Source of the DNA: Staphylococcus phage vB_SurM-PSU4
DNA: 64,000 nt
Direction: 5' to 3' (one strand)
Sequence record: OL436245.1
The stretch's first letter is position 1. Every line of letters begins with the position of its first letter. Positions 29,595 through 64,000 of this stretch are shown here, one piece after another. Under the pieces are notes generated by a model. It made no database searches, was not told the DNA's origin, and saw nothing but the letters and a program-made list of their open reading frames with translations. Position numbers and translations under genes: made by a program.

Positions 29595-29607
29595 TTTAAA
29601 ATAATGA

Positions 29608-29636: not shown

Positions 29637-29665
29637 TAGTATATAAAATTAAAGGAGAGATTTAA

Positions 29666-29917
29666 ATGATTACAGAAAAACAAAACCGTATTATTGAAGT
29701 ATTAGAAAACGAAGGATTAGAAGTAGATGGAAGTCAAGGGTATTATATTGTTGAGGATTCGGAAGGACATTCAATTACAATGGATTTTGTAGAAGATTAT
29801 TACGCAGAGATTTTAGATAATGATTTAATAAAAACAACAGTTAGTTTAGACCAAGAACACTTAATATTAACAGAAGTATTAGATGCTTTAGACTACGACT
29901 TTGAGGAGGTTTTATAA
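29666..29917 (+). CDS. Hypothetical acidic protein (83 aa)
   Basis: RBS AAAGGAGAGATTTAAATG. Confidence 0.6.
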   Translation: MITEKQNRIIEVLENEGLEVDGSQGYYIVEDSEGHSITMDFVEDYYAEILDNDLIKTTVSLDQEHLILTEVLDALDYDFEEVL

Positions 29918-29995
29918 TGGTACTTTTAGATTTTTTATTTGATGAATATGGTGAAGTTGAAAAATAAATATATATATCTAAGTATAGGAGGAATT

Positions 29996-31138
29996 ATGAA
30001 AGAACTAGAGACATGGTTAACACCTATAGATACTTATTACAAACAAAAAAGGTATGGTAGGGTAAAATATGTTAAATGTGTTTGTAAATGTGGAAATATT
30101 AAAGAAATAAGTTACACAAATTATAAAAACGGAAATACAAGAAGCTGTGGTTGTTACAGTAAATTTAAACTTAAAGATAAGTATGGATATAAAAATCGTA
30201 AACAAGGATGTTTAAATATAATAAATATAGGAGGGGAAGTATATTATCCTTTATTTGAGTTTTATGGTTATTATGTAAATACAAACGGAAATGTCTATAG
30301 TGCTAAAACAGATAAAATATTAAAACAGGATACATCTAAAAAAGGTTATCGTTCTGTAGGTTTGTATAATAATATAGGAAGAGCTACTAGACAAAGAGTT
30401 CATAGAATAGTTGCGAGTGTTTTTATTATTAATAATCATAACTTACCTCAAGTTAATCATAAGGATGGGGATAAAGAAAATAATCATGCCAGTAATCTTG
30501 AATGGTGTACTAGTCAATACAACTCTAAGCACGCTTGGGATACAGGGTTAAATAAACCAAGAAGAGGAGAAAAATCTTCAGTAAATAAATTGTCTGAAAA
30601 AGAAGTTGTAGAAATTTATAAAAGTAATAAAACAACTAAAGAGCTATCGGAAATTTTTAATATAAGTCCTAGAACTATACGAGATATTAAACGAGATAAG
30701 ACTTGGACAGACACTACAAAAAACCTTAAAAAAGGAAAGCAACCAGAGAATAAGAAGTTTTCTGAACCAGATATTGTTCATATTTACACTTCTGATGAGA
30801 CTAGTAAAAATTTATCGATACTTTATGATTGCCCTGAACCTACTATTAAAAGTATTCTAAGCGGTAAGTCTTATAAAGATGTAACTAGAAATTTAAAAAA
30901 AGGTAAAAATCCTAACAGATTAACAAAAGAGGAAGTTGAATATATTTATTTAACTAAGTATACTTACAAAGAATTGAAAAATAAGATAAATGTATCAGAG
31001 CCTGTAGTATCTTCAATAAGAAATAATAAAAGTTATACCAAAATAACTAAATATTTACAAGGTAAATCAGAAGAAGATATTGAAAGAGAATACGAAATTA
31101 GTCAAGAGGCTGGCGATGATTATATAGGAGGACTATAA
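29996..31138 (+). CDS. Free-standing HNH homing-endonuclease-like protein: N-terminal Cys cluster, HNH core, three C-terminal DNA-binding repeats
   Basis: HNH motif VNHKDGDKENNHASNLEWCT. Cys cluster VKCVCKCGN...GNTRSCGC. Three ~33-aa repeats ending NLKKGK (NUMOD/IENR-like HTH modules). ATG at 29996 follows AGGAGG; the track's start at 29939 has no RBS. Confidence 0.75.
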   Translation: MKELETWLTPIDTYYKQKRYGRVKYVKCVCKCGNIKEISYTNYKNGNTRSCGCYSKFKLKDKYGYKNRKQGCLNIINIGGEVYYPLFEFYGYYVNTNGNVYSAKTDKILKQDTSKKGYRSVGLYNNIGRATRQRVHRIVASVFIINNHNLPQVNHKDGDKENNHASNLEWCTSQYNSKHAWDTGLNKPRRGEKSSVNKLSEKEVVEIYKSNKTTKELSEIFNISPRTIRDIKRDKTWTDTTKNLKKGKQPENKKFSEPDIVHIYTSDETSKNLSILYDCPEPTIKSILSGKSYKDVTRNLKKGKNPNRLTKEEVEYIYLTKYTYKELKNKINVSEPVVSSIRNNKSYTKITKYLQGKSEEDIEREYEISQEAGDDYIGGL

Positions 31139-31363
31139 ATGAATTACTTAGCTAATGTATTTTTAAATAGTAACTGGTTTATTAAAATGGTAACGATTGT
31201 ATTACTTACAATTGTATTATGTGGTTTAGTGTATGTAGTAAGTGCTTTATCATTATTCTTATCTACAGTACTAAACCTACCAGGTTTAATTGTACTAGCA
31301 TTTTTAGCTAGTGTGAGTATTATTCTTTTAGCAATTGTAAATAATTCTAAGGAGGAAAAATAA
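31139..31363 (+). CDS. Small membrane protein (74 aa, 2 TM)
   Basis: Hydrophobic; ATG overlaps the upstream TAA. Confidence 0.55.
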   Translation: MNYLANVFLNSNWFIKMVTIVLLTIVLCGLVYVVSALSLFLSTVLNLPGLIVLAFLASVSIILLAIVNNSKEEK

Positions 31364-31542
31364 TGACAGTAGCTTTTATGTTTTTGATTGCTTTATTTGT
31401 ATTCCAATTAGTATATAGTTTTCTTTCTATTAAAGAAGCTAAAAACGGAAATGAAATTACAAGTAGTATGTATTTAACTCAATCAGTAGTATGTATGGTT
31501 GGAGTATTAATTATAGGTTCTATGATAACATTATTAAGTTAA
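31363..31542 (+). CDS. Small membrane protein (59 aa)
   Basis: ATG within TAATG after AGGAGG. Hydrophobic. Not in the track because it is under 60 aa. Confidence 0.45.
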   Translation: MTVAFMFLIALFVFQLVYSFLSIKEAKNGNEITSSMYLTQSVVCMVGVLIIGSMITLLS

Positions 31543-31556
31543 AAGGAGAAAAGATA

Positions 31557-32156
31557 ATGGTAAATTACATTGAAGATAAAGTTTGTTATTTAGGAGGGCA
31601 TATACTTTCTCAGGGAATGGTAGAGTATCGTGAAAAACAACATAAACAAGTAGAAGGCATTGTAGGAGTAACTCCTTATAGTCCTCATAAAGATAAATCA
31701 ATTAATGATAAAGCTAACGCAGAACAAACTAAGTTAGCGGAACGCATCTTAAGTAACGATTTTAAAGCTATGCAAGAATCAGATATTTTTGTATTTGATA
31801 TTCTTAATGAAGGATTAGGGACAATTGCAGAGCTAGGTATCTTATTAGGTATGAAACACCAAGCACAACAAACTATCAATAAAGCTAAGCATACTGTAGA
31901 TAATAATAGTGTTATATCTGACGAACATCTTAATGATGCTTATAGATTAGCTGTAGATATTGTAAATAAACCTGTTTTAATTTATTGTTCAGATATTCGT
32001 CAAGGGCATGGTAAACCTTACAATGACCCTGATAGAGCTGAATTTAGTACGAACCAATTTATCTATGGCATGATTTTGTCATTGACCAATGGAGAGGGAT
32101 TTATCTCTTGGGAAGAAGTTTTAAAGAGATTAGAAAAATTAGGGAGTAATGCGTAA
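31557..32156 (+). CDS. Nucleoside 2-deoxyribosyltransferase-family protein
   Basis: GG...SQG N-terminal region, DIFVFDIL...GLGTIAELGI (catalytic Glu in a D-x-G-T-x-x-E-x-G context). ATG at 31557 follows AAAAGGAGAAAAG. Confidence 0.65.
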   Translation: MVNYIEDKVCYLGGHILSQGMVEYREKQHKQVEGIVGVTPYSPHKDKSINDKANAEQTKLAERILSNDFKAMQESDIFVFDILNEGLGTIAELGILLGMKHQAQQTINKAKHTVDNNSVISDEHLNDAYRLAVDIVNKPVLIYCSDIRQGHGKPYNDPDRAEFSTNQFIYGMILSLTNGEGFISWEEVLKRLEKLGSNA

Positions 32157-32464
32157 TGGCAAGAGAACAAGAACCTAGAGTGTTTTCTAAGTTATCGAAA
32201 AAATCAAGGATAGATTATCTTGAAAAACATAATATTGATATGTACAAATTTTTAGAATTGGAAAGTAAAGGAAAAATAGGGTATGAACTTGTTATAGAAC
32301 ATACTAATAAATTAGATAATAGTAATAGTGAGCTAATTATCACAGGAGAACATTCTTCATTAATTATAAGTAGTGATATAATCTTTAATGGAATACTGGA
32401 AGATACAATAGAAACGAAATACCATAGTTTAAAAATAAAAGAAGTAAGGATTAAAGAACAATGA
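32156..32464 (+). CDS. Hypothetical protein (102 aa)
   Basis: Coupled start. Confidence 0.55.
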   Translation: MAREQEPRVFSKLSKKSRIDYLEKHNIDMYKFLELESKGKIGYELVIEHTNKLDNSNSELIITGEHSSLIISSDIIFNGILEDTIETKYHSLKIKEVRIKEQ

Positions 32465-33054
32465 ACATAGAAGCACTAGCATGGATATTATTCTTTTTAT
32501 CTGGGATACTATACATTGTAGGCTATCTTCCTGGATTAAGAGCTATGTATATAGATAAGAGTGTAGAAGGAGTATCACAATTCTTTTGGGAACTGGTATT
32601 AACTACAGTTTCATTTAGTTTCTACACTTTAATTATCACAGGAGCAGATATTGTAAATATTGTTGTAGTAGGTTGTAATATGTTTTTAGCTTTAATTATG
32701 TTAGCTTGGAAGAATATATTAAGATACCAAGCAATCGGAATATTATATACAATACTATATATAGTAATAAACTTAATGGTTTACTTTGTATTTGATATTT
32801 CACTAAGCAGCTTACAGTCTATAGCGACAATAACAATTATTTTAGCATATGTAGACCAGATAATTAGATTTGTAGTAAGGAAAACAGCAGTAGGTACAAG
32901 CCCTTTACTATACTTTATTTTAGGAATGGCTATACTATTTTTAATACTTAATTTGTTATTGACAAATGCTTATATACATGTTATAATAACAGAAGTAGTT
33001 AACCTAATCTTAATTATAATATGTTTCTTTATGTGTATGAAATATCGAGCTTGA
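32461..33054 (+). CDS. Polytopic membrane protein (about 7 TM), possibly a PnuC-like nicotinamide-riboside/nucleoside transporter
   Basis: 197 aa, almost entirely hydrophobic helices with conserved Trp. Size and topology are PnuC-like, and it sits next to a nucleoside-metabolism gene. Confidence 0.55.
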   Translation: MNIEALAWILFFLSGILYIVGYLPGLRAMYIDKSVEGVSQFFWELVLTTVSFSFYTLIITGADIVNIVVVGCNMFLALIMLAWKNILRYQAIGILYTILYIVINLMVYFVFDISLSSLQSIATITIILAYVDQIIRFVVRKTAVGTSPLLYFILGMAILFLILNLLLTNAYIHVIITEVVNLILIIICFFMCMKYRA

Positions 33055-33087
33055 CAAGAATGGAAACAGATGTTATAATAGTTAGGT
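33053..33087 (+). promoter_or_regulatory. Sigma-A-like promoter (TTGACA, 17-bp spacer, TATAAT)
   Basis: CTTGACAAGAATGGAAACAGATGTTATAATAG. Confidence 0.6.
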
Positions 33088-33107
33088 AACTGGAAAGGAG
33101 GAATTTG

Positions 33108-33590
33108 ATGGAAATTTATGTTGATAGTTTAGATTTTGATACTTTTACAATCATTGATAAGAATGGTAATAGGGAAAATATTAACATTAATGATGAATTA
33201 ATGATTGATGAGAATAATATCAACGAAGAGTTTATGAAGCAGTCAGGCAAGTATGCTTATTGGGCTTCATTATTAGAAATTGTAAGACGATATTATGAAG
33301 CAGAGCAAAGAAAGTTAGAAACCATAGGTAGTCAGTTAAACTTAACAGTTAGACAAGCCTATAAGCAAAAAGGTGAAAAGCCTACAAAAGATATGATTGA
33401 GGCTGATGTGTTTATTAATCAAAACTATCAGAATCAATTAAACATTGTAGAGGATTGGTCTTATAAGACTAAACAATTAAATTATATAGTCAAAGCTTTC
33501 GAGCAAAGGGTAAATGCTCTAACGCACTTAGGTGCTGAACAAAGAAAAACAAATAAAAATGGTGGTATTACAAGTCCACTACAATATTAA
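33108..33590 (+). CDS. Hypothetical protein (160 aa)
   Basis: ATG after GGAAAGGAGG. Confidence 0.6.
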   Translation: MEIYVDSLDFDTFTIIDKNGNRENININDELMIDENNINEEFMKQSGKYAYWASLLEIVRRYYEAEQRKLETIGSQLNLTVRQAYKQKGEKPTKDMIEADVFINQNYQNQLNIVEDWSYKTKQLNYIVKAFEQRVNALTHLGAEQRKTNKNGGITSPLQY

Positions 33591-33607
33591 TTAGGAGAGG
33601 AATAAAT

Positions 33608-34834
33608 ATGATGAATTCATTTAGTAATTTTTTATCACAAGAACAACAAAGTACAGAGAGTAATTTCAATAATAACCAACAAGAGAGATACCAACCAAAG
33701 AATAAAACAATTCGTTTAAATAAACAAAACCCTGAGATTATTGTACGTGTATTACCAGGAGTTAAAACACAAGAAGATACAGAAGGTCTTCAATTCTTTA
33801 GTAAATTCCGTAGTATTTTCTTAAACTATGTTAAAGGTGATGGAACAGCTACAAGTTCACCATTCACATTACCATTCACTATGGGAGAATCAGTATTAGA
33901 TTCATTTATTTCTAACTGGAAGAATAATAACGTTAAGATTAATGACTATAATACAAACCCTGCACAACGTTATTTAGTAAACGTAATCCCATTAGTATCT
34001 AATCAAGGTCAATTCCAATATCAAGTAGACCCTATGGGTAATGTTCTTGTAGCACCTATGGAATTAACAAAAACATTATTTGACGACTTATCAGTTAAGT
34101 TACAAGATGAAAACTTAATGCCAACACAAGATTCTAACTTAAATTTTATCTCAGAAAACCATGCCTTTGCAGTTAAACTATATCGTACAGGTCAAGGAAC
34201 AGATACAAGTTATAAAGCAGAAGTTTACCAACGTCAAGATTTAGGTCAATTACCACAAGGATGGGAAAACTTAACAAGTGACATTCAAAAAATGGCTGAA
34301 CCAACAGAGGAAAGTTCACCAGGTTTTGTAAACTTTGTAATCAACAGTATTAATGGTACAGATAAATCAATCAAGAACTTTGATTTTGAAGATGATGGTA
34401 ATACAGCACCAAGTCAAGGTCAATCTGGAGGACAATCACCTTCACAGCAACAAATCGATAATCAAATGCCTTCAAACTTAGGAGCTCCAACTCAAGGTCA
34501 ACCTGTAGAACAACAACAACAGCCTGTTCAACAGTCTCAACCTACTCAACAAGGTAATGTTGATTGGAATAACTTAGCTCAACAACAATCTCAACCAGAA
34601 CAAGGTAATCCATGGTCTGGTGTGGATACAGGTAGTGTAGATGACTCACAAGTACCATTCAATACACAACCACAACAACAAACACAACCAACACAACCAA
34701 CACAAAATCAACAACAAGCACCACAACAGAACCAACAACCGCAACAACAAGCACAACCTAATATTCCTCAAGAACAACAATCACAGAACAAAATGAAGAG
34801 TGTAGATGATATTCTAGGCAATATTGGATTATAA
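33608..34834 (+). CDS. Hypothetical protein with a ~130-aa C-terminal Gln/Pro-rich low-complexity tail; possible ssDNA-binding or recombination mediator
   Basis: Lies immediately upstream of the recA-like gene. The tail is QQQQPVQQSQPTQQ... The functional guess is by position only. Confidence 0.6.
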   Translation: MMNSFSNFLSQEQQSTESNFNNNQQERYQPKNKTIRLNKQNPEIIVRVLPGVKTQEDTEGLQFFSKFRSIFLNYVKGDGTATSSPFTLPFTMGESVLDSFISNWKNNNVKINDYNTNPAQRYLVNVIPLVSNQGQFQYQVDPMGNVLVAPMELTKTLFDDLSVKLQDENLMPTQDSNLNFISENHAFAVKLYRTGQGTDTSYKAEVYQRQDLGQLPQGWENLTSDIQKMAEPTEESSPGFVNFVINSINGTDKSIKNFDFEDDGNTAPSQGQSGGQSPSQQQIDNQMPSNLGAPTQGQPVEQQQQPVQQSQPTQQGNVDWNNLAQQQSQPEQGNPWSGVDTGSVDDSQVPFNTQPQQQTQPTQPTQNQQQAPQQNQQPQQQAQPNIPQEQQSQNKMKSVDDILGNIGL

Positions 34835-34847
34835 GAATTTAATAGTA

Positions 34848-34882
34848 GCACTTAATTGTGCTACTTTATTTTTTAGTTATAT
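34848..34882 (+). terminator. Terminator (AGTAGCAC-TTAATT-GTGCTACT plus T-run)
   Basis: Perfect 8-bp stem, then TTTATTTTTT. Confidence 0.6.
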
Positions 34883-34901
34883 AAGAGGAGGAAAATGATT
34901 T

Positions 34902-36128
34902 ATGGCAAGAAGTAGTAAAAAACAATTTGATATGTCTGATTTAAATACAATTGATTTAGGTAAAGAAATGGGATTGACAATCCTATCAGATACAAACAAA
35001 GCAGATATTAAAAATATATTACCTACAAGAGTACCTCAATATGATAGAATTATGGGTGGAGGGATTCCTTTAGGTAGACTTACCGAGGTTTACGGGATAC
35101 CTGGGAGCGGCAAGAGTACTTTTGCTGTGCACCTAACAAAAACACTAATTGATTTAGGTATTATTACTGTTTGGGTAGATACAGAAGGTACAGCCGATAA
35201 TGCAAGAATGGAACAACTAGGTGTGGATATTACTAAGATATTCTCTATTCAAGCAGGAGAAGGTCAGAGACTTAAAAATACAGTTGAGTTATCTATTGAA
35301 CAAGTAGGTAAGGAATTAGAGTATTGGGTAGATACTTTTAATGAGAAGTACCCAGGTGTACCTATTGTATTTATATGGGATTCACTAGGTGCTACACGCT
35401 CACAAACAGAAATAGATGGCGGTATCGATACTAAACAGATGGGTATAAGAGCTTCTGCCACACAAAAAGTTATTAATGCTATAACACCTAAATTAAATAA
35501 TACAAACACAGGTATTATTGTTGTAAACCAAGCAAGAGACGACATGGATGCAGGTATGTATGGGGATAAAGTTAAATCTGGTGGAGGTAAAGCTTTTGAG
35601 CATAGTGCTAGTTTAAGACTTAAAGTTAATAAAGGAGCACAAGTAAAACAACATAAAGAAACAGCAGGTAAAGAAGAATATTCAGGACATTCTATGAGAT
35701 TGGAAACTAAAAAGTCTAAGTTATCTAGACCTAACCAAAAAGCAAGTTCTGATTTACTTTCAGAATGGGAATTATCTACAGGAGAAGTTATTAACGGTTT
35801 AGACCCTGAGTATACAATTTATCAGGAAGCTGTCGATAAAGGTTTTATTACTAAAGGAGCATGGAGAAACTACGTTACTTTAAATGGTGAAGAAATTAAA
35901 TTACGTGATGCTGAATGGGTTCCTAGACTTAAGGAAGATACTGAGTTGTTTGAAGAGCTATTTAAACGTACTTATGTAGCAAATTTCCCTAAAGGGTATG
36001 CACCATTAAAGAATAAAGATGTAGATATTACAACTATACCTGAATATAAAGCACTAGAAGAATATTATGATGAACTAGAAAAAGAAAAACCTAAAGAAGA
36101 AACAAAAGGAGAGCAGGAAGACCAATAA
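34902..36128 (+). CDS. RecA/UvsX-like recombinase
   Basis: Walker A GIPGSGKSTFA. RecA-like core length. RBS AGGAGG. Confidence 0.8.
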   Translation: MARSSKKQFDMSDLNTIDLGKEMGLTILSDTNKADIKNILPTRVPQYDRIMGGGIPLGRLTEVYGIPGSGKSTFAVHLTKTLIDLGIITVWVDTEGTADNARMEQLGVDITKIFSIQAGEGQRLKNTVELSIEQVGKELEYWVDTFNEKYPGVPIVFIWDSLGATRSQTEIDGGIDTKQMGIRASATQKVINAITPKLNNTNTGIIVVNQARDDMDAGMYGDKVKSGGGKAFEHSASLRLKVNKGAQVKQHKETAGKEEYSGHSMRLETKKSKLSRPNQKASSDLLSEWELSTGEVINGLDPEYTIYQEAVDKGFITKGAWRNYVTLNGEEIKLRDAEWVPRLKEDTELFEELFKRTYVANFPKGYAPLKNKDVDITTIPEYKALEEYYDELEKEKPKEETKGEQEDQ

Positions 36129-36160
36129 AGGTCTTCTTGTTTTAAAAGGAGGTAAGTGTC

Positions 36161-36523
36161 TTGACAAGTAATATGATTGATGATAACCTAGAACGTATTA
36201 AACAGAGTTTAGAAGATGAATCTTATTTAGAAGCAGTACCTGAACCTTATAGAGATATTAAGACAAGGTTCAAATATATTAAAGAGAATGGATTGTATAT
36301 TATCTATGAAGAAAGTGGATTTCCTTACACAGATGCAATGGTAATTTACATTACTGATGTATATGATAGATGGTGTAGGGGTTATTCTATTACTAGATTT
36401 AATGGAGAAAATATCCAAGTACCTAGAACAATTCATTATTCAGATATATATGTACAAGATAAATATAATAAAGTAAAGATTATTGTAGAGGGAGCTAACC
36501 CGTATCGGAGTGAAATGAGTTGA
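36161..36523 (+). CDS. Hypothetical protein (120 aa)
   Basis: TTG start 10 nt after GGAGG. A hairpin (GAAGACC...GGTCTTC) lies upstream. Confidence 0.55.
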   Translation: MTSNMIDDNLERIKQSLEDESYLEAVPEPYRDIKTRFKYIKENGLYIIYEESGFPYTDAMVIYITDVYDRWCRGYSITRFNGENIQVPRTIHYSDIYVQDKYNKVKIIVEGANPYRSEMS

Positions 36524-37173
36524 ATAATGGAAATAGATATGTAATAGATACAGAAGGATTGAGTCATGAATTAGATAGAGACATAGATAAGCTTATGCAC
36601 AACTATAAAAACCTTAGATATGCTCTATATTATAGATTTGCAAACCAAATGGATAGTTATGTTAAGAAAGAAGAACTCTTAGAATACATTAATGAGCAAT
36701 TCATTAAACTTGTTAAAGAATATAATATTCATAGTGAAGTAGACTTCCCTTATTACATTAAAAGTAAATTAACAATGAGAGTTAGAAATAGTTATGTTAA
36801 AAAGAATAGAGATAGGGAAGCTAATGTTGTATTTGGTAATGATGATGATACATTAGAAACGATTATCGAATCAAGTGATAGTGATTTATATATGAATGAT
36901 TTGGTAAGTTATTTATTCGATGGTGTTGATTTCACTGAAGTTGAGAGTGAATTATTACATGAAATATTTACAAATGATGAGAATGTAGATGACCCTATCA
37001 TTGTATCTAATGTAGCTAGTCGAATGGAAGTACCTAGAAAAGATGTCACACGAACATTAACAGAACTAAAAGATTTTATAAGGTTTAAGTTACATGCACA
37101 TGAAAGTAATAATAAGGATATAGATATTGTTAAAGGTAGAGTGAATACTGAAAATAATACGTGGGAAATGTAG
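36520..37173 (+). CDS. RNA polymerase sigma-factor-like protein (phage middle/late sigma)
   Basis: 217 aa. The N-terminal region resembles sigma-70 region 2. It sits downstream of recA, as the sigma gene does in Twort-like phages. Weak call. Confidence 0.5.
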   Translation: MNNGNRYVIDTEGLSHELDRDIDKLMHNYKNLRYALYYRFANQMDSYVKKEELLEYINEQFIKLVKEYNIHSEVDFPYYIKSKLTMRVRNSYVKKNRDREANVVFGNDDDTLETIIESSDSDLYMNDLVSYLFDGVDFTEVESELLHEIFTNDENVDDPIIVSNVASRMEVPRKDVTRTLTELKDFIRFKLHAHESNNKDIDIVKGRVNTENNTWEM

Positions 37174-37246
37174 GAAGAGTACCGTATGAGTGATATATTA
37201 TTACTGAAAACATTAATAATTTAAATAAATTAGGAGATGAAAATAA

Positions 37247-37951
37247 ATGGCTAAAGAAGTATTGAAAGATGTAATCTTTCAAGATGATTCAGTAGATATT
37301 AATAATAAATATCTAGAAATTAAAACAAATGCAGACGGTTATACAGGTACACATAATGGTGTATACTCTTATAAAGTGGTTCAAGAAGACGGTGAATACT
37401 TTGTATACCCAGTAGAAACAGATGGTAAAGGTACACTTATTACACGTAAGAAATCACCAATCATTTATACTGATGGAGATATTGTATATTTTGTAGTAAG
37501 TACAGTTACAGACCCATATGAACACCCAATTATTCGTGAAGAAGATATTAAAGGATTAGACAAAGCTAAACAAGTATTACAAGCTTTCTTAGCATTTGCT
37601 TATGATAACTTTACATTAGGTGTTTATAACGTATTCTTTACAAATACAGAAGATGCTTTCGGTGTTAAAGATAGCTCTGATGAAGATGCAGAGAACTTTG
37701 AAGACTCTGATACACCTTCTGCACGAGCAAGAGAAGAACGTTTTGCTTGGGGTTCAACACGTACTGAAATGAGACCATACCCAGAAGGTGTATCTGAATC
37801 AGTAGCTAAAGAAGAAAAAGAAATCGAAGTAGCTAAAGAAGAAAAAGAAATCGAAGCACCTAAAGAAGAAAAAGAAAACGAAGCACCTAAAGAACCAGAA
37901 AATGTAGACGTAGAACCAAAAGAAAACGAAGCAGAGGCATCTGCTGAATAA
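37247..37951 (+). CDS. Hypothetical protein with C-terminal KEEKEIE tandem repeats
   Basis: The DNA shows three copies of a 30-bp tandem repeat at about 37803-37895. RBS AGGAGATG. Confidence 0.65.
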   Translation: MAKEVLKDVIFQDDSVDINNKYLEIKTNADGYTGTHNGVYSYKVVQEDGEYFVYPVETDGKGTLITRKKSPIIYTDGDIVYFVVSTVTDPYEHPIIREEDIKGLDKAKQVLQAFLAFAYDNFTLGVYNVFFTNTEDAFGVKDSSDEDAENFEDSDTPSARAREERFAWGSTRTEMRPYPEGVSESVAKEEKEIEVAKEEKEIEAPKEEKENEAPKEPENVDVEPKENEAEASAE

Positions 37952-37969
37952 TTGAAAGGATGAAATGTT

Positions 37970-38485
37970 TTGGTAGAAAAGTTAAATTTGTATAAAGGTG
38001 AAGAATTATTAACATCTGGAGAAAAACAAGGAGATATTGCTTCTGTTACAATTACAGACTTAGACTCTAATACGACATATCCTAAAGGAACATATCAAGT
38101 TGCTTTTGAAAATGAATCGGGTGAAAGTGATAAGGTAGATGTTCCTGAATTTAAAACTAAATCTGTTGGTGTAGTTAGTGTATCTTTAGATAAAAACACT
38201 TTAGAATTAGAAACTGAACAAACAGATACCCTAACAGCAACAGTAAGTCCTAATGAAGCAGATAATAAAAATGTAAGTTTCTCTTCAGATAATGAAGACG
38301 TTGCTACTGTAGATGATTCAGGTAGTGTATTAGCAATTAGTCCAGGTACAGCTACTATTACTGTTACAAGTGAAGAAGGTAATAAACAAGCTACTTGTGA
38401 AGTAACTGTAAAAGACCCAATACCTGATGCACCTGAAGATGTAACTGTAGAACCAAGTGAAACAACAGCAGATATTATCGTATAG
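37970..38485 (+). CDS. Ig-like (Big_2-type) domain protein, TTG start
   Basis: Big_2-like segment TLTATVSPNEADNKNVSFSSDNEDVATVDDSGSVLAISPGTATITV. Its N-terminal 70 aa are paralogous to the next ORF. TTG follows AAAGGA. Confidence 0.6.
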   Translation: MVEKLNLYKGEELLTSGEKQGDIASVTITDLDSNTTYPKGTYQVAFENESGESDKVDVPEFKTKSVGVVSVSLDKNTLELETEQTDTLTATVSPNEADNKNVSFSSDNEDVATVDDSGSVLAISPGTATITVTSEEGNKQATCEVTVKDPIPDAPEDVTVEPSETTADIIV

Positions 38486-38501
38486 GAGGAAACTCTAACT
38501 T

Positions 38502-38756
38502 ATGGCAAAAGTATTCAATGTTTATAAAGGTGAAGAAGTAGTACAATATACAGAAGTAGGGGAAGATGGTTCTGCTAAAGCTACTATTAGTGGTTTAGAT
38601 GCAGGAACTGAATATCCTGAAGGTACTTTCCAAGTTTCATTCACTAATGAATCAGGAGAAAGTGATAAAGTAGATGTACCTGCTTTTACAACAGAACAAG
38701 CTAAAGAGTCAGGAGACACTGAACAACCAGAAGAGTCAGGAGAACCTGAAGCTTAA
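38502..38756 (+). CDS. Paralog of the N-terminal domain of the preceding Ig-like protein (84 aa)
   Basis: NVYKGEE...TEYPEGTFQVSFTNESGESDKVDVPAFTT matches NLYKGEE...TTYPKGTYQVAFENESGESDKVDVPEFKT. Confidence 0.6.
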   Translation: MAKVFNVYKGEEVVQYTEVGEDGSAKATISGLDAGTEYPEGTFQVSFTNESGESDKVDVPAFTTEQAKESGDTEQPEESGEPEA

Positions 38757-38767
38757 AAAATATTTTA

Positions 38768-38797
38768 GACCAACATTAATTTGTTGGTCTTTTTTTA
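38768..38797 (+). terminator. Terminator (AGACCAACA...TGTTGGTCT plus T7)
   Basis: 9-bp stem and T-run. Confidence 0.65.
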
Positions 38798-38828
38798 TTG
38801 ACATAAACTATTAACTATGGTATAGTAT
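38798..38828 (+). promoter_or_regulatory. Sigma-A-like promoter (TTGACA, 17-bp spacer, TATAGT)
   Basis: Immediately 3' of the terminator. Confidence 0.55.
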
Positions 38829-38858
38829 ATACATATCAAATAAAAGGAGAGGTTTTAC

Positions 38859-39113
38859 ATGGAAGTAATTACATTTAGAACGTGGAATGATTTAGAAAAG
38901 GTAAGAGAGAAAATGAAAGATGTAAAAGACAATGAAGATATTGCAGTCGTATTTGATAAAGTTTCTACTAAGACACTAAATGTTCAAGCTATTGCAGATG
39001 AAATTAATTTTATTCGAGTAGGTAATGGATATGGTATTAGTGAGTATGGGTTCACAGAACCAGGTGGAGATACTTTCGGTTACATGTATAAGAAAGAGAA
39101 AGAGGAGGAATAA
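38859..39113 (+). CDS. Hypothetical protein (84 aa)
   Basis: RBS AAAAGGAGAGG. Confidence 0.6.
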   Translation: MEVITFRTWNDLEKVREKMKDVKDNEDIAVVFDKVSTKTLNVQAIADEINFIRVGNGYGISEYGFTEPGGDTFGYMYKKEKEEE

Positions 39114-39115
39114 TC

Positions 39116-39490
39116 ATGACAGAGGAAATGGTTTTATTACGAGATATTAAATCAAGGATAAAGTTGTTAGAAGACCATGATATTAAAAATACTTTAAGAA
39201 ATACATGGGATATTAAAGATAAAGCTGATTTAAATAAAGCTTCCATAGACGGTTTGTTTGAATATATTAAAACAATACCTGATTTTGAATACGAAAACTT
39301 TAAAATCATAAATGGAAATATAGAGAAAGTTTTAAAATATCTGGATGATGAGGTCAACCTTAAGGATAATAGAGATGAAAAGATTAAAGCTATAGTTAAA
39401 GATAAACTATCTAAACTAAGAGAATTAAATGGTAGTCCTGAATACAATGATACTGTTATTGATTTAATGAGATTGGTAGATATGTTATGA
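39116..39490 (+). CDS. Hypothetical protein (124 aa)
   Basis: Coupled start. Confidence 0.55.
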   Translation: MTEEMVLLRDIKSRIKLLEDHDIKNTLRNTWDIKDKADLNKASIDGLFEYIKTIPDFEYENFKIINGNIEKVLKYLDDEVNLKDNRDEKIKAIVKDKLSKLRELNGSPEYNDTVIDLMRLVDML

Positions 39491-39705
39491 ATAGAAACTT
39501 CAAGAGATTACTTAATCATGAACACAAAGAAATTAATAAAGCTACCTCTAAACAGATAGCTTTTATTAAGGAGTACAGTCTACATGAAGACATAGACTTT
39601 GACTCTCTAACAATTGATGAAGCTTTCGTATATATTAAAGAGATAGAAGACTTATGGATAGAGATAGAAGCAGAGTGCTACTGTGAAGATGTAGGAGATA
39701 GATAA
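39487..39705 (+). CDS. Hypothetical protein (72 aa)
   Basis: Overlapping start. Confidence 0.5.
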   Translation: MNRNFKRLLNHEHKEINKATSKQIAFIKEYSLHEDIDFDSLTIDEAFVYIKEIEDLWIEIEAECYCEDVGDR

Positions 39706-39782
39706 AAAAAATAAAAAAAATAGCTTTACTTATTTATCTTAGTATGTTAAACTATACAGGAAAGTAATGGAGGAGAATGGTT

Positions 39783-40175
39783 ATGAAGATTAAACAAAAG
39801 AAAGAATTAAACTTACCGCAGTTGATTGAGTGGGGATTTAATAATCCAGAGTTGGTAAAAGGCAAACTATATTTAACAAAAGAACATGACGAATACAGCC
39901 CTTATGTGCAGTTTTCTGTAGATGGTTACGGTGTTAGAACAAGTCAATCTATAAATAATAAAGACACTTTCACAGTCGAAGTCGAGGAAGTAGTTGATAG
40001 TGATACTGTTCTAGACAATATTTATACAGTAAACGTAGAAGTAGGTACTAGTCATACTACTTACTATAAAAGTAAAAGTATTGATGATGTAAAAACCGAT
40101 GAAATTAATATAATTTACACAATACTCAAAGAGGAAGCTATAGTTTTGTGGGATTCTCAGGGAGGTTTTAGGTAA
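39783..40175 (+). CDS. Hypothetical protein (130 aa)
   Basis: ATG after GGAGGAG; the track's start at 39777 is upstream of the RBS. Confidence 0.55.
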   Translation: MKIKQKKELNLPQLIEWGFNNPELVKGKLYLTKEHDEYSPYVQFSVDGYGVRTSQSINNKDTFTVEVEEVVDSDTVLDNIYTVNVEVGTSHTTYYKSKSIDDVKTDEINIIYTILKEEAIVLWDSQGGFR

Positions 40176-57974: not shown

Positions 57975-58059
57975 GTGAAATGAAATACCTGCTTCTATGC
58001 TTGACAGCTATGAAGCGGGTATGTTATATTTAATATATAATCAATTAGGAGGTGTTAGA

Positions 58060-59756: not shown

Positions 59757-60686
59757 ATGACAAATAAAACAAGATACCAAACAAAGGTACTAGAATTATT
59801 AGATGATTTACTTACAGAAAAAACACTAAATGACGAGAAGCTTAAACAAAAAGTGAAAGAATATATAGGTTCAAAAGTTGCAAGTATAGATGCAGTATTA
59901 TTCGATGTTGATGGTGATGGTAAAAAGACTGCTTTAAATAATATTATTGAAAAAGTGAAGAATGAGAATCTAGTAGAACTAGAATCACTTTTAGACAAGT
60001 ATGAACTAGATTTTGACCTTGAATATTTATCAGGAGATTTCCAAGTATATACCAAGTTAGATGGTAAAGAGATTGTTATAAATAAAGGTTCAGAAAAAGA
60101 CTTCGTTTTATTTATCGGAGACCTAAATTTTGAAATGAATTCTCAAGAATTAGAAACTTTCCTAGATAGAAATGTACAAAAAGAGATTGGTAGTATTTTA
60201 AATGGAGAAAAGCTAAGTAAAGTTTTTAACTATTTAACTATTGAAGGTTATGCTTTTGATGAGAAAAGTAATAAAATTAGTCTAAAATTTCCTGGAAGAG
60301 ATTTAGAATTTTTTGAGGAAAAAGGTAAGTTATATTTTTCAAACTTAGTAGGGTATATAAAACCTTTAGATATTGAAAAGGAAGAAGATTTAAATTCTAT
60401 TATAAGTGGAAATGCTTTAGCAGAAGATGTAATCGAAGAGGTTCAAAAACATTTAGACTTATGTTACTTTGAATATGAACTCAATTACAATAATGACAAT
60501 ATTACTTCTATAATATTTGAAAGTAGAGAAGCATTTGTTATTATTAAAGTTCTTGAAGAAAGTAATAAGATTACTATTCAAGCACATGATAATGATGGAT
60601 ACACAGTACATTATCAAGAACCATTAGTATATAGAACAATAGAAGAACTAGATTTACTTATATCAGAAATGTTAACTACTCATTAA
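59757..60686 (+). CDS. Hypothetical protein (309 aa)
   Basis: RBS AGGAGGAATTTATAATG. The last long ORF before the repeat-rich non-coding region. Confidence 0.65.
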   Translation: MTNKTRYQTKVLELLDDLLTEKTLNDEKLKQKVKEYIGSKVASIDAVLFDVDGDGKKTALNNIIEKVKNENLVELESLLDKYELDFDLEYLSGDFQVYTKLDGKEIVINKGSEKDFVLFIGDLNFEMNSQELETFLDRNVQKEIGSILNGEKLSKVFNYLTIEGYAFDEKSNKISLKFPGRDLEFFEEKGKLYFSNLVGYIKPLDIEKEEDLNSIISGNALAEDVIEEVQKHLDLCYFEYELNYNNDNITSIIFESREAFVIIKVLEESNKITIQAHDNDGYTVHYQEPLVYRTIEELDLLISEMLTTH

Positions 60687-60815
60687 GTTGAGTAGTTTTT
60701 TTATGTTTAATCAGAGAGCTAATAGGAGCTTGTTTTAGGTAAGTAGAAATAAAGAAGGTAGGATTAATCCTAAAATGAAATAAAGTCCAAGGAGACCACC
60801 TTAGAGTGTCTCTGT

Positions 60816-61180
60816 AAGAGTAAAAAGCATAAGTATGAATAAAGAAATACCAAAACGTAAAAAAGCATAAGTATATATGAAGTTTTGTCCAATCGTAAAA
60901 AGCCTAAGTATGTTTCTAGAATATCCAATTCATATTTAAAGGTAACTTGAAAATGGAAAAAGCATAAGTATAAATGAAGAAATTTCAAATCGTAAAAAGC
61001 CTAAGTATGTTTCTAGAATATCCAATTCATATTTAAAGGTAACTTGAAAATGGAAAAGTATAAGTAGTTTTTAACTTTTATCAAATCGTAAAAAGCATAA
61101 GTAAAAACTAGCTTTAATAGAAACGTAAAAAGCATAAGTAGTTTTTAACTTTTATAAAAACGTAAAAAAGACAAGTAGGA
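60816..61180 (+). repeat. Iteron-like array: at least 9 copies of a ~16-bp motif (GTAAAAAGCATAAGTA and variants), including a ~70-bp segment duplicated exactly
   Basis: Copies begin at about 60819, 60856, 60894, 60958, 60991, 61054, 61087, 61124 and 61161. An identical ~70-bp block sits at about 60889-60958 and 60986-61055 and contains a TTCTAGAA palindrome. Confidence 0.8.
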
Positions 61181-61396
61181 ACTAGGTTTCCTCGCCCTAT
61201 AAAAAATATAGACCGCAAAAAACACTAGGAATATTATTCCCAGTGTATTGTATAATTTTTTTTATAGAATATTTATAACATTATATTCAAAACAAATACT
61301 ATTATAGCAGACTGATATATAATTTCAATACTTTTTTACAAATTAAAAGGGAAATTTTTCACTTTATGACAATTTAAAAAAGTGTAAAATTGGTTC

Positions 61397-61425
61397 TTGA
61401 CAAATCGGCTTTTATCCTTTATCAT
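61397..61425 (+). promoter_or_regulatory. Sigma-A consensus promoter (TTGACA, 17-bp spacer, TATCAT) driving a ~240-nt non-coding leader
   Basis: TCTTGACAAATCGGCTTTTATCCTTTATCATAAT. No ORF of 20 or more codons before 61676. Confidence 0.55.
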
Positions 61426-61586
61426 AATAATTGGAGGGGTCTGTCTGTCTTATATATAGGTTATTCTATAAAAAAGTTATATAATAAATATAGAATTATA
61501 TAAAAAAATTATTCTATTTATTTTTTACCTAATTTCTAGTTTCTACCATATAAATGAAATTTTAAGACCTAAAAAAGTTTTTAATT

Positions 61587-61615
61587 TTGGGGGTTGCAAA
61601 CTGAATTAACTTAGT
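61587..61615 (+). promoter_or_regulatory. Second promoter (TTGCAA, 17-bp spacer, TATAGT) upstream of the 61676 gene
   Basis: GGTTGCAAACTGAATTAACTTAGTGTATAGTATT, followed by the small hairpin GATAGA-AAAAA-TCTATC. Confidence 0.5.
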
Positions 61616-61675
61616 GTATAGTATTAGACAGATAGAAAAAATCTATCTAACTAAAAACTAATGGAGGTAATTTTA

Positions 61676-61978
61676 ATGGGAAAGAATAAAGATATACAAA
61701 ATATAATAGGGGTATTCGATTTATATGGTGCCATAGATAGACGTAATGAAAATTATATCGTATACGGTAAACCACAAGGCGAATATTTGCAGTTACTTAT
61801 ACAGACTAATCAAGGATATATTGAATTCTATCAAAAACAGAAGTTTTTTAAAAAACAGTTACCGCAAGAATATGGAACGATGTTTCATAAATACGGTTTA
61901 ACATTTTTATATATTAATAGAATGTTATATATCATTAGGAATAAAAAAATAATAAATCAAATTGAAATTCTTGATTAA
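61676..61978 (+). CDS. Small early-type protein (100 aa)
   Basis: ATG at 61676 follows AATGGAGGTAATTTTA. Confidence 0.55.
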   Translation: MGKNKDIQNIIGVFDLYGAIDRRNENYIVYGKPQGEYLQLLIQTNQGYIEFYQKQKFFKKQLPQEYGTMFHKYGLTFLYINRMLYIIRNKKIINQIEILD

Positions 61979-62020
61979 TATATTTAAATAAAAAAATTAT
62001 AGAATAGGGGAAAATAAAAT

Positions 62021-62188
62021 ATGAAAACTGTTCAAATTATAAAAAACGTAAAAGTACAAAAAAATAATTTAGTTGTAGGGGATTATATAAAAAGTGAATT
62101 AAATGATACACAATATAATATTACCGTAACTAAAATAATTGAAAAATTAAATGGTTTAACTTTAGTTGATGGGATTGTAGCAAAATAA
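62021..62188 (+). CDS. Small protein (55 aa)
   Basis: RBS AGGGGAAAATAAAATATG. Followed by the hairpin AGTGCTTTAAC...GTTAAAGCACT. Confidence 0.45.
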   Translation: MKTVQIIKNVKVQKNNLVVGDYIKSELNDTQYNITVTKIIEKLNGLTLVDGIVAK

Positions 62189-62191
62189 AAA

Positions 62192-62226
62192 AAGTGCTTT
62201 AACCTTTTACCACGTTAAAGCACTAC
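62192..62226 (+). terminator. Stem-loop (11-bp stem) after the small gene; A-run upstream and a weak U-run downstream
   Basis: AGTGCTTTAACCTTTTACCACGTTAAAGCACT. Confidence 0.35.
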
Positions 62227-62244
62227 CAAATTTAAAAAAACTAT

Positions 62245-62456
62245 TGCAATTATCTTATAACTTGATATAATAGTATTTGTAAGGTAATCAAAAAGGAACT
62301 TAAGCAAATAACGAAAAATATTTAAAATAAGACTTGCATTTACATTAAAGATGTAGTATCATAATAGATGTAAGGGAAAGAAACACAATACACCTTAAAA
62401 ACTTTTTAAAAAAGTTAAAGAAAACTATTGACAACATAGAAACAACATGTTATTAT
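62245..62456 (+). promoter_or_regulatory. Three stacked sigma-A-like promoters with no intervening ORF
   Basis: TTGCAA-16-TATAAT at 62245-62272; TTGCAT-17-TATCAT at 62335-62363; TTGACA-17-TATTAT at 62428-62456. Confidence 0.5.
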
Positions 62457-62534
62457 TAAGATAACAAATAAGACAAGCCACTAGCAAATAAGGAAATTAA
62501 ATAAAAAAATTATTAAAAAGGAAGTTGATTAATT

Positions 62535-62822
62535 ATGACAAAGAAAAATTATTTATATACAGAAACTCACACAGTACAAAATAAAGAAATTGAAGTTTTT
62601 AGAATTAAAAATGACGTGAACGGTAATCCACGTTATGTCGTACACTTTAGAGACCTGGGCATCGGTTTATGGGACTATGACAACATAAACAAACTATACG
62701 GATTTAATAAATATCGTGCCCAATGGTTTGGCGGTGGTGTAGTATTTCAAAGCTATAATATTGAAGATACTCTAAATTATGCACTAGAAACAGTTAAAGA
62801 AAAAGAAGCGGTTAAGAATTAA
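62535..62822 (+). CDS. Small early-type protein (95 aa)
   Basis: Preceded by the conserved leader cassette AATTAAATAAAAAAATTATTAAAAAGGAAGTTGATTAATT-ATG. Followed by the hairpin AAGCGGTT...AACCGCTT. Confidence 0.6.
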   Translation: MTKKNYLYTETHTVQNKEIEVFRIKNDVNGNPRYVVHFRDLGIGLWDYDNINKLYGFNKYRAQWFGGGVVFQSYNIEDTLNYALETVKEKEAVKN

Positions 62823-62871
62823 AACCGCTTCTGAATTAAATAAAAAAATTATATAAAAAGGAATTGATAAT

Positions 62872-63144
62872 ATGAATTTAGAAATAGAAACTAAACCAGT
62901 TAAAACACTAAAAGCAATTAAAGACGATACTAGAAATATTAAAAATAGTATAGCAAGTCATTTAGGATTAGAAAGAGAACAATTTAAATTATCTAATGGA
63001 TTAATAACTTTAAAAGGTTATTCAGAAGAATTTAAATGCTGGTATAATTTAACTAGCACGATTGGTAATTTCCCTAAATATTTAAAATCAGAATTATATA
63101 ATGAATACAAATTATATTGTAATGTAGAATTAAAAACTAAATAA
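62872..63144 (+). CDS. Small early-type protein (90 aa)
   Basis: Preceded by the leader cassette AATTAAATAAAAAAATTATATAAAAAGGAATTGATAAT-ATG. Confidence 0.6.
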   Translation: MNLEIETKPVKTLKAIKDDTRNIKNSIASHLGLEREQFKLSNGLITLKGYSEEFKCWYNLTSTIGNFPKYLKSELYNEYKLYCNVELKTK

Positions 63145-63180
63145 TTAAATAAAAAAATTATATAAAAAGGATATGATATT

Positions 63181-63456
63181 ATGACAAAATATATAATAAC
63201 TGAGTGCGGAGATATCTCAATAGAAAATAAAAAGTTAAAAAATACTATAAAAGAATTAATTAATAAAGAAATAAAAAATATTGAAGATAACACTATTGAT
63301 GAAGATAAAGAATTAGCAGAAAAAACTATAAAAAAATTATCTAATTTAAAACCATATAATAGAGATGGATTAAAACAGTTTAACAATATATTAAATATAT
63401 TATCAGTTTGGGAAGGTGCTTACAATCCATATGAATTAGAATACAAAGAAATTTAA
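63181..63456 (+). CDS. Small early-type protein (91 aa)
   Basis: Preceded by the leader cassette AATTAAATAAAAAAATTATATAAAAAGGATATGATATT-ATG. Confidence 0.6.
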   Translation: MTKYIITECGDISIENKKLKNTIKELINKEIKNIEDNTIDEDKELAEKTIKKLSNLKPYNRDGLKQFNNILNILSVWEGAYNPYELEYKEI

Positions 63457-63596
63457 TAAAAAAGTTATATAATATCCTTAGGATTAATTTCCTAGGGATT
63501 TTTATTTGTTTAAATTTATATAAAAAAAATTATATAATAATTACTGTATAGAATAAAAGAAAAATTGAATAACTTTAATATTGATTAATTTATTTA

Positions 63597-63662
63597 TAGA
63601 ATAACTAAAATATAGAGTAACTAAAATATAGAATAATTAAAATATAGAGTAACTAAAATATA
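63597..63662 (+). repeat. Four tandem copies of a 16-bp unit (TAACTAAAATATAGAR)
   Basis: ATAGAATAACTAAAATATAGAGTAACTAAAATATAGAATAATTAAAATATAGAGTAACTAAAATATA. Confidence 0.7.
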
Positions 63663-64000
63663 TTAGAACCTGGGAATTCTTTAACCACCCCACTGGATAA
63701 CATTATAATTATATTGCCTACCCACCTATTAAACTTTTTAATTAATTATAGATAATCTTATTCAATAGTTATTGTATTGTGTCCGCTTCAATACTTATTT
63801 TATTCTATAATTTTATTATTTAATTGTGGGCTAATCAATGCTAATGATATTATATTGTGTACTAATGAATAGTTAATGAATTGTATTAGGTGGATAATGA
63901 ATTGTAATCAATTGTATAATATTTTTATAGTATTTGAAGCGGTTGTATTCATTTGTTATTATATAAAAAAATTATATAGTTTACTTTAGTCAATTAACGT

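Follow-up and report, generated by a model that had tools for sequence, protein, structure and literature searches.

A repeated leader of the terminal-repeat early genes of Staphylococcus phage vB_SurM-PSU4: a probable translation-initiation linker and gene-exchange junction

In T4-type phages, promoter-early stem-loop (PeSL) cassettes located between ORFans have been linked to modular shuffling (Arbiol et al., 2010, PMC2839356; Comeau et al., 2014, PMC4122927). An element that resembles them in several respects is found in a stretch of 64,000 nucleotides (nt) of Staphylococcus phage vB_SurM-PSU4 (sequence record OL436245.1), referred to as the window hereafter. This element, here called the cassette, is a leader of 30–40 nt that is repeated directly upstream of small early genes and contains a 14-nt core, ATAAAAAAATTATA, in its 5' half. 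Both PeSLs and the cassette are short conserved regulatory repeats situated between small, non-essential and mostly ORFan early genes of a hyperplastic region, in both cases the junctions of insertions, deletions and replacements between related phages fall at the repeats, and some cassette copies also adjoin stem-loops or terminators. However, a PeSL consists of a σ70 early promoter and a terminator stem-loop, whereas the cassette is a promoter-less ribosome-binding site (RBS) leader within a polycistronic mRNA. The cassette unit itself is unstructured, the stem-loops in its vicinity being a hairpin without U-tract before one copy (copy 2) and true terminators that the core precedes by 5–8 nt. 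Further differences are the Gram-positive host, the affiliation of the phage to the Herelleviridae and the crowding of Chi sites in the cassette region, which is undescribed for PeSLs. A trait of PeSLs is, moreover, the excision of mini-circles by recombination of adjacent copies. The cassette is treated here as an element that works like a PeSL outside that family, i.e., as an RBS-leader variant of the same principle.

Other described systems share part of these properties. According to the modular theory, which is said to go back to Susskind and Botstein and to gene-boundary homologies of lambdoid phages, short boundary sequences guide the exchange of non-homologous modules. Such linkers are, as the cassette, short and conserved gene-boundary sequences proposed for module exchange, whereas the cassette is a defined unit composed of stop codons, an A/U tract, a split Shine-Dalgarno (SD) sequence and the ATG, which is confined to one region and occurs many times per genome. 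The host-takeover module in the terminal redundancy of phage SPO1, reportedly described by Stewart and colleagues in 1998, is said to consist of genes with unusually strong SD sequences. SPO1 belongs to the same virus family, and its module shares with the cassette-led genes the location in the terminal repeat, the small early genes in short operons and the use of host σA. In contrast, the SD of the cassette falls below the genome average in strength, and what is conserved is the upstream A/U-rich stretch; to our knowledge, a leader cassette common to several genes has not been reported from SPO1. In T4, RegA and RegB act on the translation initiation regions (TIRs) of early genes, and a sequence common to many early TIRs, as the cassette is, could likewise allow a coordinated shut-off. 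However, the motif of the cassette also occurs away from start codons. An integron attC-type cassette was considered as well and rejected, as there is no attC-like inverted repeat and no integrase among the neighbouring annotated genes.

Twort-like phages (Kayvirus and related genera) are the main therapeutic phages against staphylococci, and their terminal-repeat genes, which are the first to be expressed and are thought to mediate host takeover, vary between otherwise near-identical phages. We propose, with a probability of roughly 0.6, that the cassette is transcribed and acts as an unstructured linker for translation initiation and, in addition, as a junction at which small early genes recombine. 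Evidence taken directly from the sequences comprises the repetition of the cassette, its restriction to the terminal repeat, its phasing to the ATG, the lack of promoter features, the low predicted structure and the coincidence with synteny breakpoints, while its position inside early mRNAs is taken from orthologous loci. If this proposal is correct, a portable leader combined with gene exchange would explain the variability of terminal-repeat genes, the cassette would provide a rational insertion site and a ready expression signal for payload genes in early operons, and the PeSL concept of linker cassettes would extend to Gram-positive Herelleviridae by means of an RBS leader instead of a promoter-terminator unit. 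A literature search returned no description of the motif; the review by Lobocka et al. (2012, Adv Virus Res) lay outside that search.

Distribution and anatomy of the cassette

Megablast searches with positions 61200–64000 and 20000–40000 of the window yielded matches in Twort-like myoviruses of Staphylococcus and Mammaliicoccus only (Herelleviridae, Twortvirinae), the nearest of which, at ~90% identity, are the Baoshanvirus phages phiSA_BS1, phiSA_BS2, Golestan101-M and RSM-J51Sa. Judged by these matches, the window is from a Baoshanvirus-like Staphylococcus phage and the cassette region is its terminal-repeat (Tre) early-gene block. This agrees with a first-pass annotation, made from the sequence alone, that had compared the cassette with host-takeover gene families in terminal-repeat regions of Twort-like phages. 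In fact, the open reading frame (ORF) at 62535–62822 encodes TreK, one of the proteins of the terminal repeat (Pfam PF24229, E = 5e-42). A crude gene call on the window gave 96 genes, all of them on the + strand, on which the features described below are located unless stated otherwise. For comparison, 17 related loci were used, which together with the window make 18 sequences.

Four cassettes of the window abut an ATG (starts at 61980, 62495, 62834 and 63143). Three near-identical copies, before the ATGs at 62535, 62872 and 63181, were already recognised in the first-pass annotation and are found precisely there. Copy 1 (62495–62534), which was aligned with 12 relatives, forms the 3' part of the TreK 5' untranslated region (UTR), copy 2 (62834–62871) is intercistronic between TreK and a 90-aa ORF (gene 2, 62872–63144), and copy 3 (63143–63180), whose first base is the last base of the gene 2 stop codon, is likewise intercistronic and leads into a 91-aa ORF (gene 3, 63181–63456). 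The three consecutive genes of that annotation stand, but their count has to be raised to four by copy 4 (ATATTTAAATAAAAAAATTATAGAATAGGGGAAAATAAAAT; 61980–62020), a diverged copy that abuts the ATG at 62021 of a 55-aa ORF and has mismatches at 4 of 27 positions while keeping all 14 positions of the core. Copies 1–3 share the pattern AATTAAATAAAAAAATTAT(AT)AAAAAGGA..., the first 29 nt being identical in copies 2 and 3; relative to these, copy 1 has a 2-nt deletion (TTATTAAAAAGGA) and a spacer that is 2–3 nt longer. The sequence of copy 2 is unchanged in Stab21, Metroid and HN01, and the orthologue of copy 1 in phage K is located downstream of the promoter at 4219. Allowing up to three mismatches, the 21-mer AAAAAAATTATATAAAAAGGA gives three matches against 0.15 expected, and none of 100 shuffled sequences reaches three.

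The layout of the cassette is AATTA(A)ATAAAAA-AATTA(T)ATAAAAA-GGA-WW-TGAT-N4-6-ATG, in which the 5' half is a tandem 13-nt unit. It includes the palindrome TTATATAA, stop codons in all three frames inside the first 23 nt, and a split SD (AAAGGA-NN-TGAT) with the ATG 4–6 nt past TGAT. Among 27 unique instances, the core is separated from the ATG by 18 nt in 17 and by 18–21 nt in 26. In the distant Sepunavirus phage 80A the cassette is kept although the rest of the UTR has diverged.

The wider search for copies suggested in the first-pass annotation retrieved additional core matches, all of them in the last 2.8 kb of the window. With at most one mismatch, the core occurs 12 times in 61200–64000 against 0.59 expected from an order-3 Markov model, an excess of ~20-fold, and is absent from the other 61 kb; similarly, phage K contains nine cores in its 8.5-kb terminal repeat and none in the following 51.5 kb. 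Only the last four of the 96 window genes carry the core within 60 nt upstream, matching at 13–14 of 14 positions compared with typically 8–10 elsewhere. A search of 185,579 species-representative bacterial and archaeal genomes gave no exact match to a 28-nt cassette pattern, which leaves a host origin or mimicry of the leader without support, and the exact 27-mer is found in IMG/VR in only two contigs, both from Staphylococcus Twort-like phages. An 18-mer is uninformative, giving scattered single matches in unrelated A/T-rich viral contigs that are apparently due to chance.

Partial copies had also been reported in the first-pass annotation, and they are real. Two of them (61468–61481 and 61500–61513) are non-coding and located downstream of a promoter at 61397–61425, another (ATATAAAAAAAATTATATAA; 63519–63538) lies just past a terminator, and a core-only copy (63963–63976) is found in non-coding DNA at the window end. 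Moreover, the core alone (ATAAAAAAGTTATA; 63456–63469) directly follows the gene 3 stop codon, 4 nt before the terminator hairpin, a core-then-terminator layout that is also present in Metroid, Stab21, K, SA3 and PG-2021_19. In the window and the 17 loci together there are ~210 core matches, which are co-oriented with local transcription wherever the annotation permits judgement. The core is found before an ATG with the SD in between (27 unique instances), 5–8 nt ahead of terminator hairpins, ~31 nt upstream of a -35 box just past a terminator, and in short non-coding stretches downstream of promoters. What had been taken as the conserved unit, the leader, is supported as a shared leader or intercistronic RBS region, but its 5'-half core also stands without a gene, before terminators and upstream of -35 boxes.

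Inverted copies are present on the minus strand. One is a relic without SD or ATG (AATTAAATAATAAAATTATAGAATAA; 63800–63825, minus strand; 88% complementarity for I11 and I12, 96% for I15), and an inverted core (61248–61261, minus strand) directly precedes a minus-strand terminator (61246–61222). Transcripts of the + strand that cross these inverted relics (63785–63835; also 61220–61262) would carry cassette-complementary sequence. The duplex of the inverted relic RNA is predicted at -21.5 kcal/mol with copy 4 and at -18.0 kcal/mol with copy 2 (shuffle mean -9.2, sd 2.4; best pairing partner within 60.7–64 kb). A phage K small RNA, snc002 (5022–5067, minus strand), spans a core copy and would complement the cassette between gp011 and gp012.

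Transcription and translation initiation

Two σA promoters are located upstream of copies 1–3, at 62244–62271 and 62428–62456. The latter, an early promoter (TTGACA-17-TATTAT with TG) that is expected to transcribe these copies, is the orthologue of phage K promoter #4 (4219) and of p11_1 of phage 515A1. A third σA promoter, the one at 61397–61425, lies upstream of two partial copies, and the intrinsic terminator at 63474–63507, which closes the TreK operon, is the sole one after the three promoters. As far as can be read from the sequence, the window cassettes lie downstream of σA promoters with no intrinsic terminator between. The cassette itself lacks a -35 element, as the first-pass annotation had stated: no conserved -35 hexamer is found 16–18 nt upstream of any -10-like hexamer on the + strand of the cassette, and the promoter scan returned promoters at 61397, 62244 and 62428 but none inside the cassette. 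A σA promoter in the cassette was therefore rejected, as there is no TTGACA-like/TATAAT-like pair 16–18 nt apart. An antisense promoter, for which a perfect TATAAT on the minus strand was considered, was rejected as well; the pair TTCATA-17/18-TATAAT matches 10 of 12 positions in two copies, which does not exceed the level of shuffled sequences (37 found vs 28 expected for the region).

The transcription of orthologous loci has been mapped in two phages. In phage K, gp011 (TreK) and gp012 constitute the early transcription unit TU4, with the promoter at 4219, the terminator at 4874 and no promoter listed at the cassette (Finstrlova, 2022), and RNA-seq of 515A1 mapped p11 and p11_1 to upstream positions without listing any promoter at the cassettes (Kornienko et al., 2020). 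The orthologous copies of both phages sit inside early units, past mapped σA promoters, in line with the shared 5' leader proposed in the first-pass annotation.

Directly before copy 2, a 10-bp hairpin without U-tract (AGAAGCGGTT-N9-AACCGCTTCT; 62804–62832) extends over the TreK stop codon, with a predicted fold of -15.1 kcal/mol (z = -3.2), and this hairpin at the end of TreK is maintained both where it falls within the ORF and where it follows it. A second G+C-containing hairpin lacking a U-tract (AGTGCTTTAAC...GTTAAAGCACT; 62189–62235) follows the 55-aa ORF. Both hairpins may be RNA 3'-end stabilisers or attenuators.

As translation signal, the cassette has the complementarity to 16S rRNA 5–10 nt from the start codon that defines an SD-type TIR. 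Its split SD agrees with the complement of the 16S rRNA 3' end (AAAGGAGGTGAT) at 10 of 12 positions, the mismatch being the central GG, whereas most other window genes have a canonical GGAGG. The cassette TIRs are among the least structured of the window, ranking 2, 9, 10 and 11 of 96 for least ensemble structure, and the TreK leader folds at only -0.2 kcal/mol, all of 200 dinucleotide shuffles folding at least as well. Rfam covariance models gave nothing at E ≤ 1 in 60600–64000; with the cassette being unstructured, a structured RNA element or known RNA family was rejected.

In the model that we propose, σA polymerase would start at 62244 and 62428 and read TreK and the next two ORFs up to the terminator at 63474, so that copy 1 would be the end of a ~75-nt 5' UTR and copies 2 and 3 would be intercistronic. 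Each copy would supply three-frame stops, an A/U-rich unstructured stretch at about -21 to -40, the split SD and the ATG, and any ORF placed behind a cassette would therefore be translated independently of its neighbour. The A/U-rich part may also enhance initiation.

Proposed gene exchange at the cassettes

The genes behind the cassettes are not related to each other. As the first-pass annotation had proposed, the downstream proteins are not paralogous: they match different PHROGs, i.e., 3164 (that of TreK/PF24229), 12335 and, weakly, 34504, and all-against-all BLASTP assigns the five proteins of the block to separate families as it does to separate PHROGs. At least 11 ORF families that are unrelated to each other and have no known function follow a cassette in the window or the 17 loci, among them TreJ, TreK, TreI (minus strand), TreL, the two window ORFs and gene 16 of Metroid. 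Cassette variants are not tied to gene families, one variant being found with several families and one family with several variants; e.g., AATTAAATAAAAAAATTATAGAATAGGATTTGATTATTATG stands before TreK in Kayviruses and before the gene-3 family in PG-2021_19, and the gene-2 family carries three cassette variants. The simplest account of unrelated genes sharing a leader is that ORFs have been exchanged at cassette copies.

Comparison of related phages places the breakpoints at the cassettes. Past TreK, the hairpin and TGAATTAAATAAAAAAATTATATAA are identical in all phages compared and divergence sets in at or just after the ATG, where one of three alternative ORFs is found: gene 2 (the window, Metroid, Stab21), TreL (K, MSA6, HN01, V1SC01) or a third one (SA3, PG-2021_87). 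When the window was compared with nine relatives by BLASTN, homology blocks stopped at 62003, 62025, 62542, 62849, 62890, 63165 and 63192 and began at 62824 and 62836, every one of these edges being in a cassette or no more than 20 nt away from it. In phiSA_BS1 and phiSA_BS2, gene 2 is flanked by cassettes on both sides while its neighbours differ, and in RSM-J51Sa other genes occupy the TreK slot between the same cassettes. Gene 3 is absent from Metroid and Stab21, in which the junction falls within AAAAAATTATA and the 5' core is fused straight to the terminator; the gene-3 module is therefore bounded by two core copies, and the core-plus-terminator arrangement looks like an empty site. Elsewhere gene 3 is present only in PG-2021_19, behind a different gene and with the same cassette before it and the same core and terminator after it. 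An independent precedent for exchange at SD-to-start repeats is provided by Kayvirus 812h1, in which a 2-kb insertion/deletion is bordered by the direct repeat GGAGGTTAATTWATGAA, an SD-to-start region (Botka et al., PMC6445280).

We suggest that the 30–40 nt repeated at every junction, together with the 5' core before the operon terminator, would act as homology patches by virtue of this repetition, and that recombination among the copies of one genome, or of relatives infecting the same cell, would insert, delete or exchange whole ORFs. Homologous recombination, with or without Chi, is the mechanism that we infer for this exchange. Chi sites are characterised by their attenuation of RexAB/AddAB degradation and by a stimulating effect on recombination. 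The S. aureus Chi sequence is GAAGCGG (PMC8022716, PMC11442139), and it is ~100-fold enriched in, and confined to, the terminal repeat. The window contains five Chi sites vs 0.54 expected, at 62805–62811 (+), 62825–62831 (-), 63783–63789 (-), 63936–63942 (+) and 58012–58018 (+), four of which fall in 62805–63942. In phage K, positions 1–8486, the 8.5-kb repeat, contain 20 sites vs 0.17 expected and the next 51.5 kb none, while Metroid, HN01 and 184DA have 26–35 per locus. The sites occur on both strands, in and between genes, and often as inverted pairs that form hairpins or terminators. The arms of the hairpin before copy 2 are such an inverted pair of exact heptamers (62805–62811 on the + strand, 62825–62831 on the minus strand), and each cassette lies within a few hundred bases of a Chi in either orientation. 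Dense Chi, including the inverted pair upstream of copy 2, may stimulate the exchange, and the Chi density is compatible with RexAB/RecA-driven exchange and with protection of incoming linear ends. A Chi cluster restricted to the terminal repeat suggests a strategy against RexAB that favours recombination at genome ends; a literature search found nothing linking Chi with Kayvirus, Twort-like phages or phage K.

Two further rearrangements were observed near these junctions. In Golestan101-M (~6120–6165, corresponding to 62805–63160 of the window), TreK is joined to the 3' end of the gene-2 module via a shared AGAATTAAAA, and a deletion between two AGAATTAAAA copies removes the second hairpin arm, cassette 2 and gene 2, so that the short repeat used by this deletion is distinct from the core motif. 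The 63-aa TreL (phage K gp012, 4662–4853) has its homologue in the C-terminal third of a 157-aa protein (PG-2021_19 1963–2436, phiSA_BS1, phiSA_BS2 and RSM-J51Sa; ...DVKTLWALAKNGYMSYQTVRNIFKNESD...), and TreL therefore looks like a fragment re-started behind a cassette.

Alternative readings and other repeats of the region

Several observations weigh against the cassette being a linker and exchange junction. Transcription of the cassette in the window phage is inferred by transfer from phage K and 515A1, which belong to another genus. The SD duplexes of the cassettes (-8.6 to -10.4 kcal/mol) are weaker than the mean of the 96 genes (-10.6 kcal/mol), so that a stronger-than-usual SD was rejected, the low structure of the cassette is partly owed to base composition, and an enhancer role of the cassette is conjecture. 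As regards exchange, a cassette is present at every gene boundary of this region, which makes cassette breakpoints inseparable from gene-boundary breakpoints. A 1585-bp tandem duplication in phiSA_BS2 has its junction between SD and ATG, with 1-nt microhomology and outside the A-rich core, and was rejected as a case of cassette-mediated recombination on account of that position. The proximity of Chi to the motif in phage K is not significant (~3 of 20 sites within 60 nt vs ~2.5 expected). Finally, the non-gene contexts of the core (106 unique) outnumber the gene-proximal ones (27); as most cores are non-gene and are phased to terminator hairpins and -35 boxes, the core could have a separate function outside the TIR and linker model.

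Such a function could reside in the RNA. The main rival to the linker and junction proposal is that the core in early mRNAs is recognised either by an endoribonuclease, be it host RNase Y, host RNase J1 or an enzyme of the phage, or by a repressor of translation; cleavage 3' of the U-less hairpin would then stabilise the TreK message, and uncouple the downstream messages or shorten their life, or shut off early proteins once takeover is complete. Each of the 210 core matches inspected is co-oriented with local transcription as far as the annotation can tell, the core is found in 5' UTRs, in intercistronic regions and in 3' UTRs before terminators, and the motif is limited to the earliest, rapidly declining transcripts. 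A single G precedes many copies in an otherwise A/U context (CTG-AATTAAAT, GGAAATTAAAT), which resembles the preference reported for RNase Y. In 515A1, moreover, a 3'-end site with a down-step in coverage, t11, coincides with the hairpin GAAGCGGTT...AACCGCTTC directly before the cassette despite the missing U-tract; the phage K study reports no terminator or 3' end after gp011, and the presence of t11 in one phage but not in the other keeps RNA processing alive as an explanation. However, no Rfam family matched, and some copies are situated between a terminator and the next promoter, a place in which RNA should be scarce; we hold this explanation to be unlikely. Another possibility is a DNA-level protein-binding site of the terminal repeat, recognised by an early or middle phage regulator or by a host AT-binding nucleoid protein, which would either silence early transcription or arrange the repeat for recombination, replication or packaging. 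The strict restriction of the core (12 vs 0 in the window, 9 vs 0 in phage K), its fixed distances to -35 boxes (31 nt) and terminator hairpins (5–8 nt), and the combination of a palindromic half-site TTATATAA with an A7 tract, often as a 13-nt tandem (two AATTAWATAAAAA), would fit such a site. Nevertheless, the strong strand bias with transcription is unexpected for a palindromic operator, and the sites do not overlap promoters; we regard this possibility as improbable.

The cassette might also have no function of its own, its copies being paralogous remnants of duplicated terminator-promoter-leader modules kept alike by recent duplication or gene conversion. Many non-gene copies do look like homologous copies of whole modules and not like independent sites, and the 18-mer turns up singly by chance in many unrelated A/T-rich viral contigs. 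We consider this quite improbable in view of the preservation of the cassette across Kayvirus, Baoshanvirus and Sepunavirus while the adjacent UTR diverges, the fixed phasing to the ATG and the ~20-fold excess over the order-3 Markov expectation. Least credible of all is a -10-only promoter used by a phage-modified polymerase or a phage sigma factor, with TTATATAA/TATAAA as extended -10 and an own start for each gene. The late promoter of Kayvirus, TGTTATATTA, indeed lacks a -35 and has a long -10 (Kornienko et al., 2020, PMC7698491). The cassette resembles it in being A/T-rich, in having no -35 and in the TTATAT core, 8 of 10 positions agree in the partial copies AAGTTATATAAT at 61471 and 63459, and late promoters have been reported to drive at least the homing-endonuclease gene in the terminal repeat. 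However, the cassette AATTATATAA differs from the late promoter (TWN upstream, TT downstream) at 3 of 10 positions, TG included, and no cassette copy is among the window matches to TGTTATATTA with up to one mismatch. A start 6 nt on would fall in the SD (AAAGGA) and give an mRNA without RBS. Besides, the orthologous genes are early and co-transcribed from upstream σA promoters, and the cassette is not listed as a promoter site in either RNA-seq study. A Kayvirus late promoter was rejected on these grounds, which also uphold the view of the first-pass annotation that the cassette is not just a promoter (no -35, mismatch to the late promoter, orthologous starts upstream).

A more far-reaching scheme can be drawn up, which is tentative and, taken as a whole, rather unlikely. 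The terminal repeat would be a dedicated arena for gene shuffling and early control, built on the excess of oriented core and Chi. The oriented core would punctuate every module at start codons, terminators and promoters, Chi would turn the RexAB attack on linear ends into RecA loading beside the cassettes, and this loading would drive concatemer formation and the exchange of ORFs between copies. A shut-off factor, i.e., a protein or complementary RNA from the inverted copies, would bind the core and shut off the earliest mRNAs.

Other repeats are present around the cassettes. Just upstream of the cassette region, the non-coding positions 60813–61200 contain about eight repeats with a 37-nt period (CGTAAAAAGCATAAGTA...), which probably correspond to the variable 35-bp tandem repeat of Kayvirus 812 at the end of the unit genome before the right terminal repeat (PMC6445280). 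At 63595–63660, a 16-nt sequence, TATAGARTAACTAAAA, is repeated four times in tandem inside a gene-free region of ~450 nt (63560–64000). This region is kept at 77–84% in Golestan101-M, phiSA_BS1, phiSA_BS2 and RSM-J51Sa, with ~2.3 kb without annotated genes in phiSA_BS1, and could be a non-coding RNA or a repeat-boundary element. Within it, the sequence ACCTGGG at 63668 resembles what we take to be the terminal-repeat boundary motif of Twort-like phages.

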